Positions 47,170 through 47,765 of a stretch of 64,000 bases of DNA are shown piece by piece. This stretch comes from Escherichia coli (GTDB taxonomy: Bacteria > Pseudomonadota > Gammaproteobacteria > Enterobacterales > Enterobacteriaceae): NCBI RefSeq assembly GCF_003334405.1, contig NZ_QOWM01000001.1; one strand, given 5' to 3'. The position numbers and the translations under genes were made by a program. Numbering within the stretch: position 1 is the first letter of the stretch; the number at the start of each line of letters is the position of its first letter. Below the pieces are notes generated by a model that did no database searches, was not told where the DNA came from, and saw nothing but the letters and a program-made list of their open reading frames with translations.

Positions 47170-47765
47170 GATGCGCCACATCCGGCATGGTATGCCGGAT
47201 GTGGCGTATGCTGATAAGACGCGCCAGCGTCGCATCAGGCAACCGGCTCGGGCGTTAGATGTTGGATGCGGCGTAACCGCCTTATCCAACCTACGGGGTG
47301 GAGCACTTCACAGCGGTGTAGGCCTGATAAGACGCGCCAGCGTCGCATCAGGCAACCGGCTTGGGCGTTAGATGTCGGATGCGGCGTAACCGCCTTATCC
47401 GACCTACGGGGTGGAGCACTTCACAGCGGTGTAGGCCTGATAAGACGCGCCAGCGTCGCATCAGGCAACCGGCTCGGACGTTGGATGTCGGATGCGGCGT
47501 AACCGCCTTATCCAACCTACGGGGTGGAGCACTTCACAGCGGTGTAGGCCTGATAAGACGCGCCAGCGTCGCATCAGGCAACCGGCTTGGGCGTTAGATG
47601 TCGGATGCGGCGTAACCGCCTTATCCGACCTACGGGGTGGAGCACTTCACAGCGGTGTAGGCCTGATAAGACGCGCCAGCGTCGCATCAGGCAACCGGCT
47701 CGGGCGTTGGATGTCGGATGCGGCGTGACCGCCTTGTCTGACCTACGGGGTGCCGCACTTCACGG
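47170..47765. repeat. BIME array: about five tandem 113-bp units, each a pair of REP palindromes
   Basis: gtaggcctgataagacgcgccagcgtcgcatcaggc recurs at 47318, 47431, 47544, 47657 (period 113); a further unit upstream; produces duplicated spurious ORFs in the track. Confidence 0.9.

Follow-up and report, generated by a model that had tools for sequence, protein, structure and literature searches.

Which kind of element fills the spacer between the convergent genes mqo and eco, and which role it may have there, is the question raised by one region of the 64,000-nt stretch of Escherichia coli DNA analysed in this study (in the following, the window). A reading made from the sequence alone had described this region as a tandem array of about five 113-bp BIME units, each with two REP palindromes in opposite orientation, and had called such arrays gyrase- and IHF-binding, mRNA-stabilising and variable in copy number. 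The array is already known and well documented, and this sequence-only reading is essentially right. The feature very probably corresponds to REP161, as this BIME-2 array of E. coli is named in K-12, and the roles that it would have as a gyrase target and in the eco 3'UTR are inferred from data on K-12.

Structure of the mqo-eco spacer

The mqo gene on the plus strand ends with a TAA stop codon at 47166-47168, and the stop codon of eco on the minus strand (complement TTA) occupies 47770-47772. The 601-bp spacer between the stop codons of these convergent genes is made up of a 36-nt leader and 5 x 113 bp, which together fill it completely. The features are the following.

45522-47168, plus strand: mqo (malate:quinone oxidoreductase) coding sequence, a 548-aa ORF, also in the RefSeq annotation of the 100%-identical NZ_CP025903.1
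47171-47209, no strand assigned: leader hairpin, stem 16-18 bp, loop 3 nt, 2 nt past the mqo stop codon
47205-47317, plus strand: unit 1, variant a; degenerate z2 REP without GTAG (palindrome 47210-47240), 20-nt linker, inverted y REP 47261-47294, 23-nt linker; RF02564 match at 47209-47291 on the minus strand, 61.9 bits
47318-47430, plus strand: unit 2, variant b; z2 REP 47318-47353, inverted y REP 47374-47407; RF02564 match, 76 bits
47431-47543, plus strand: unit 3, variant c; z2 REP 47431-47466, inverted y REP 47487-47520; RF02564 match, 74.2 bits
47544-47656, plus strand: unit 4, variant b (the same as unit 2); z2 REP 47544-47579, inverted y REP 47600-47633; RF02564 match, 76 bits
47657-47769, plus strand: unit 5, variant d, terminal; z2 REP 47657-47692, inverted y REP 47713-47746; RF02564 match, 63.7 bits
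47770-48258, minus strand: eco (ecotin) coding sequence, from the ORF and the RefSeq annotation

Tandem Repeats Finder delimits the array at 47211-47763, with a period of 113 bp, 4.9 copies, 95% matches, 0% indels and a score of 1015, and thus confirms the periodicity given by the sequence-only reading. The 36-nt core (GTAGGCCTGATAAGACGCGCCAGCGTCGCATCAGGC) named by that reading occurs as an exact match on the plus strand at 47318, 47431, 47544 and 47657, where it had been placed (0 expected from 100 shuffles); three more copies are found elsewhere in the window, at 8144, 8232 and 35293. The one further unit proposed upstream of the exact cores exists as well. This unit 1 (47205-47317) is in register but degenerate, its z2 foot having decayed to CGTATGC- versus GTAGGCC. 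Units 2 and 4 are identical (113/113), which gives the array a secondary period of 226 bp, and the remaining units match at 97-109 of 113 positions.

On the plus strand, each unit consists of a z2 REP, a 20-nt linker, an inverted y REP and a 23-nt linker. The z2 REP is in GTAG orientation (GTAG-GCCTGAT-AA-GACGC-GCCA-GCGTC-GC-ATCAGGC), and the inverted y REP ends in CTAC (GTCGGAT-GC-GGCG-TAAC-CGCC-TT-ATCCGAC-CTAC). GTAG is present at all four core positions (47318, 47431, 47544 and 47657), and CTAC closes each y unit. Inverted-repeat search and folding agree that the two opposed palindromes of a unit are hairpins, whose stems comprise 7 + 5 or 7 + 4 pairs around the 2-nt internal mismatch that REPs typically show. 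The y stem of unit 1 is GTTGGAT/ATCCAAC, and the first z2 foot has lost GTAG (CGTATGC-TGAT) in every E. coli allele examined. At the other end of the array, unit 5 abuts the eco stop codon and carries a terminal linker variant with a small hairpin (TGCCG-cacttca-CGGCA).

Identity of the array

BIME-1 elements combine a z1 with a y REP, are single-copy and have a long L linker that often contains an IHF site, whereas BIME-2 elements combine z2 with y, are tandem and multicopy, and have short variable linkers and a strain-variable copy number (Ton-Hoang et al.). At the sequence level, the array shows every property of BIME-2. Its REP palindromes of 30-40 nt carry the GTAG/CTAC foot and the internal stem mismatch; z2 and y alternate in orientation, and the gathering score of RF02564 is exceeded in 5/5 units; the copies are tandem and conserved (4.9 copies, 95%) with short linkers of 20 and 23 nt; the array is extragenic, lying wholly between the mqo and eco stop codons; and copy number varies, from 1 to 7 units in the alleles read directly. 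Two checks on this identity were run and both were passed: the palindromes match y and z2 REPs, and the period is 113. Compared with the K-12 array REP325, which is described in the literature as twelve alternating Z2 and Y units, identity amounts to 35/36 for the z2 part and 31/34 for the y part.

The name REP161 was tied to the locus through Table 16 of Harris et al. (2026), together with a comparison of strains ER1821R and DH1 that is discussed below. REP161 of K-12 and the array in the window share the locus, the leader hairpin and the unit variants in one order. They differ in length, the a-b-c-b-e-d array of MG1655 filling a 714-bp spacer and the a-b-c-b-d array of the window, with one unit fewer, a spacer of 601 bp. 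The flanks of the array are 100% identical over 600 bp to those of K-12 derivatives. The unit pattern matches that of the K-12 derivative DH1Ec095, but the window has a leader SNP absent from K-12 (G at 47173 versus A in K-12). The region in the window is 100% identical over the full 1601 bp to that of strain 300709.

DNA gyrase

The first of the two binding activities named by the sequence-only reading is documented in K-12. Table DS3 of Sutormin et al. (2019) lists the eco>-<mqo BIME-2 of K-12 (654 bp) with 11 gyrase cleavage sites in the presence of ciprofloxacin, 7 with rifampicin and ciprofloxacin, 2 with microcin and 5 with oxolinic acid. The same authors note "6 cuts" at this element in Espeli and Boccard (1997), a number that matches the six units of the K-12 array, with one cut for each. 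Among REPs, gyrase shows a preference for the y type, and the BIME-2 signals increase when transcription is blocked, so that BIME-2 elements are regarded as transcription-independent strong gyrase sites (Sutormin et al., 2019). A role as barriers to supercoiling has also been suggested for BIME-2 elements. Like the transcript 3'-end data discussed below, the gyrase data come from K-12 with six units, and the strain of the window has five. By extension from K-12, the array DNA in the window would be a clustered, transcription-independent site of gyrase binding and cleavage between two convergent transcription units.

Copy number and evolution of the array

The variable copy number that had been predicted for the array was borne out by direct comparison of alleles and genomes. 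With a query made of the flanks only, mqo and eco could be linked in 5,185 of the 5,426 complete E. coli genomes, and the spacer classes were read from an evenly spaced sample of 60 genomes. One unit was found in 40 of these, two units in 1, three in 2, four in 2, five in 5, six in 7 and seven in 2; the spacer of 1 genome was interrupted by IS621. A 51-nt probe for the junction between units had matches in 2,009 of the 5,426 genomes (37%), with 1-11 junctions each (median 5), which corresponds to a range of about 1-12 units. The remaining ~63% of the complete genomes lack a unit-unit junction, a state that in the sample equals one unit. Alleles with several units appear to be concentrated in lineages resembling K-12 and BL21 (phylogroup A).

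Variation extends to K-12 and its derivatives. ER1821R has the same six units as MG1655, DH1Ec095 has five (a-b-c-b-d), NBRC 3301 four (a-b-e-d) and MC1061 three (a-b-d), and removing whole units in register from the six-unit string yields each of the shorter ones. In agreement with the six and five units read in those lineages, ER1821R has been reported to carry a "small expansion of REP161" compared with DH1. Unit number changes by in-register gain or loss of whole units, and the likely routes are recombination or slippage between near-identical units, or action of the REP-associated transposase TnpA-REP. The pattern of whole-unit loss is as expected from recombination or slippage, with amplification by TnpA-REP as an alternative route. 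Some changes are not whole-unit events: the six-unit allele of E. coli 3PT has a 724-bp spacer, with a z2 spacing of 121 versus 113 between units 5 and 6, and so exceeds the 716-bp six-unit spacers of its own lineage, which has two extra Gs in the leader, by about 8 bp and the 714-bp spacer of MG1655 by 10 bp.

The locus can also be a target of insertion. In E. coli 2017-02-2CC (NZ_AP027764.1), the IS110-family element IS621 (positions 1717-2697 of the locus) lies inside the mqo-eco array, at the GTAG|GCC foot of a z2 REP and with AG on both sides of the insert. IS621 prefers REP sequences, and this insertion fits that preference. In the O146:H21 strain 2013C-3033, the eco-mqo intergenic region is listed as the integration site of an stx1c prophage (PMC12113909).

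A possible, if rather doubtful, alternative is that the additional units are a product of neutral or selfish amplification, a REPIN or BIME minisatellite without host function at which gyrase cleavage and transcription are incidental. The high frequency of one-unit alleles (40/60 sampled genomes, and 63% of all genomes without a unit junction) favours such a scenario, as do the laboratory K-12 derivatives that live with 3 to 6 units and have no reported phenotype, and models for amplification driven by TnpA-REP exist. The array resembles REPIN-RAYT systems in that each unit is a REP doublet and has two features required by TnpA-REP for binding and cleavage, the GTAG foot and the mismatch in the stem; REP161 has been predicted by RAREFAN to be RAYT-associated. 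REPIN-RAYT doublets are dispersed, whereas the doublet of the array is amplified locally in tandem. Against a purely neutral or selfish origin, at least one y/z2 pair is present in every allele examined, including that of the sister clade Escherichia sp. E1V33, and gyrase cleavage at the array is strong and independent of transcription. That about two-thirds of strains have one unit speaks against any strong need for the array itself, and a large part of the variation in copy number is probably nearly neutral. To see the extra units as a largely neutral minisatellite is plausible, and this view overlaps, and is compatible, with the preferred reading of a BIME-2 array that would serve as a gyrase target and as part of the eco 3'UTR.

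Escherichia sp. E1V33 has three units at the same locus (NZ_RHJI01000010.1, 430-790), and the canonical GTAGGCC foot of its first z2 REP is intact, in contrast to the decayed foot in every E. coli allele examined. This three-unit array with its intact first GTAG foot gives a hint that the multi-unit state is old and that the one-unit alleles may be contractions. A scan for the exact z2-linker-y junction across 100,044 species genomes (one per species) matched only Escherichia sp. E1V33, and since such a pattern misses diverged relatives and one-unit alleles with a 1-nt shorter linker, the result weakly suggests that the unit may be restricted to Escherichia.

In practical terms, the array is a true variable-number tandem repeat, with differences even between K-12 derivatives; it can lead short-read assembly astray or be used to mark lineages. 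Its alleles, which have 1 to 7 or more units, also form a natural series in which BIME-2 copy number could be compared with gyrase recruitment and 3'UTR behaviour. One conceivable outcome is that unit number is a heritable dial that sets how long and stable the eco 3'UTR is, or how strong a gyrase-dependent supercoiling barrier between mqo and eco is. This seems unlikely; if it were true, the expression of ecotin or Mqo would differ measurably between alleles.

Transcript ends and the proposed eco 3'UTR

Between the mqo stop codon and the array lies the leader hairpin, which is near-perfect, is present in every allele examined and folds as DNA with -20.9 kcal/mol (z = -7.7). It is not a canonical y or z REP. 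Its right arm is similar to the left arm of a y REP (GCCGGATGTGGCG). A scan of 47169-47769 detected neither an intrinsic terminator (a GC-rich hairpin followed by a U tract) nor a promoter-like site, and a classical intrinsic terminator and an internal promoter in the spacer were rejected on this basis. The leader hairpin lacks a T run, and yet transcript 3' ends from both directions have been mapped to it in K-12. In Table 16 of Harris et al. (2026), a bidirectional terminator eco:mqo appears with the entries REP161 and "Convergent" at MG1655 2305063-2305108, where the 3' ends of the convergent eco and mqo transcripts overlap in log phase. This interval corresponds to 47168-47213 in the window and hence to the leader hairpin; its overlap with REP161 is only 9 nt.

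If the K-12 mapping holds for the strain of the window, the leader hairpin next to the mqo stop codon would be a shared bidirectional 3' end of mqo and eco. Transcripts of mqo would then end ahead of the array and those of eco would traverse all of it, because a terminator at the leader hairpin implies that eco transcripts run through the whole array and that the REP hairpins belong to the eco 3'UTR, outside the main mqo transcript. The array would thus form a hairpin-rich 3'UTR of eco of about 600 nt (about 715 nt in K-12), in the sense orientation of the naRNA model. If eco transcripts really cross all REP hairpins, these are weak terminators in that direction. The mRNA stabilisation mentioned by the sequence-only reading is a claim about REP elements as a class: by analogy, the hairpins may stabilise the transcript, and they may hinder 3'-5' exonucleases or reduce read-through. 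For REPs located between convergent genes, a correlation with higher expression of the two genes has been found, and a general REP effect on half-life has not (Harris et al., 2026).

The Rfam model RF02564 (naRNA4) matches 5/5 units on the minus strand at 61.9-76 bits, above its gathering score of 59.5. This raises the question whether the locus is naRNA4-like, its y-linker-z2 segments being processed to RNAs that bind HU, bridge cruciform DNA and condense the chromosome, as in the model proposed for REP325 by Qian et al. (2015). The matches lie on the sense strand of eco, and in K-12 transcription of this strand runs across the array. REP325 (naRNA1-6, yjdM-yjdN) and the array are both tandem BIME-2 elements with alternating z2 and y REPs, about six units and the same relative orientation, and in both the RF02564 sense strand is the one transcribed from the upstream gene. 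Even so, such a function is distinctly unlikely here. RF02564 also matches the other y/z2 pairs in the window above the gathering score (8194-8264, 35249-35325 and 35363-35439, all on the plus strand), and since it matches every y/z2 pair there, it acts as a generic BIME-2 detector and does not point to a specific RNA gene. An HU-bound RNA with a role in nucleoid condensation has been claimed for REP325 only (Qian et al., 2015) and is disputed: deletion or overexpression of REP325/naRNA4 leaves nucleoid volume unchanged, and contacts between REPs were not seen (Harris et al., 2026).

The array also departs from REP325 in its architecture. Its period is 113 bp versus 100 bp, and its linkers are of 20 and 23 nt versus 13 and 17 nt and of unrelated sequence. 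The y stems differ by compensatory changes (GCCGGAT/ATCCGGC in REP325, GTCGGAT/ATCCGAC in the array). REP325 lies between tandem genes of one operon, whereas the array separates convergent genes and is bordered on one side by a strong terminator hairpin of its own, distinct from the REPs. Among 18 unit variants, few stem positions vary, and one-sided changes favour neither strand consistently. For annotation, a match to Rfam naRNA4 in E. coli indicates no more than a y/z2 REP pair and is not to be taken as an sRNA gene. A second small BIME-2 at 8144-8312 (period 87, 1.9 copies) contains one RF02564 match.

IHF binding and coding potential

The other half of the claim that the array binds gyrase and IHF did not hold, because the element belongs to BIME-2 and lacks an IHF consensus. 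BIME-1 elements of the RIP type do bind IHF, and they share with the array REP palindromes in opposite orientation outside genes; the idea that the array itself is such an element goes back to a generic statement in the sequence-only reading and is highly improbable. BIME-1/RIP elements are single-copy, have z1 REPs and contain their IHF site in an L linker that is long and conserved. The REPs of the array are of the z2 type, the units are tandem, the linkers are of 20 and 23 nt, and the L motif with its IHF site is absent. No match to the IHF consensus WATCAANNNNTTR was found in the mqo-eco spacer at 0-2 mismatches. BIME-1 was therefore rejected at the sequence level.

The repeats also account for the ORFs in the spacer, which had been called pseudo-ORFs from the start. 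One 78-aa ORF is present in two identical copies, which start at 47266 and 47492, and the first ~53 residues are common to the ORFs at 47361 and 47587; this duplication results from the secondary 226-bp period. That the 78-aa ORFs recur within the array might suggest a repeat protein, but this has a negligible probability and protein coding was rejected, because 113 is not a multiple of 3, so that the reading frame shifts from one unit to the next, and identical ORFs return only every 226 bp, because none is annotated in the RefSeq records, because they vanish in the one-unit alleles carried by most strains, and because the spacer is without a promoter-like site. The region should be labelled as a BIME-2/REP array (REP161), not as ORFs or an sRNA gene.

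Two further elements were observed in the window. The sRNA MicF (RF00033, 114 bits) is encoded on the minus strand at 39100-39193, in keeping with the ompC-micF region of the chromosome of E. coli, and a 36-bp tandem repeat with 2 copies of 77% identity (GATCCAGACCCAACACCCGACCCGGAACCCACGCCG) is located at 14074-14144.
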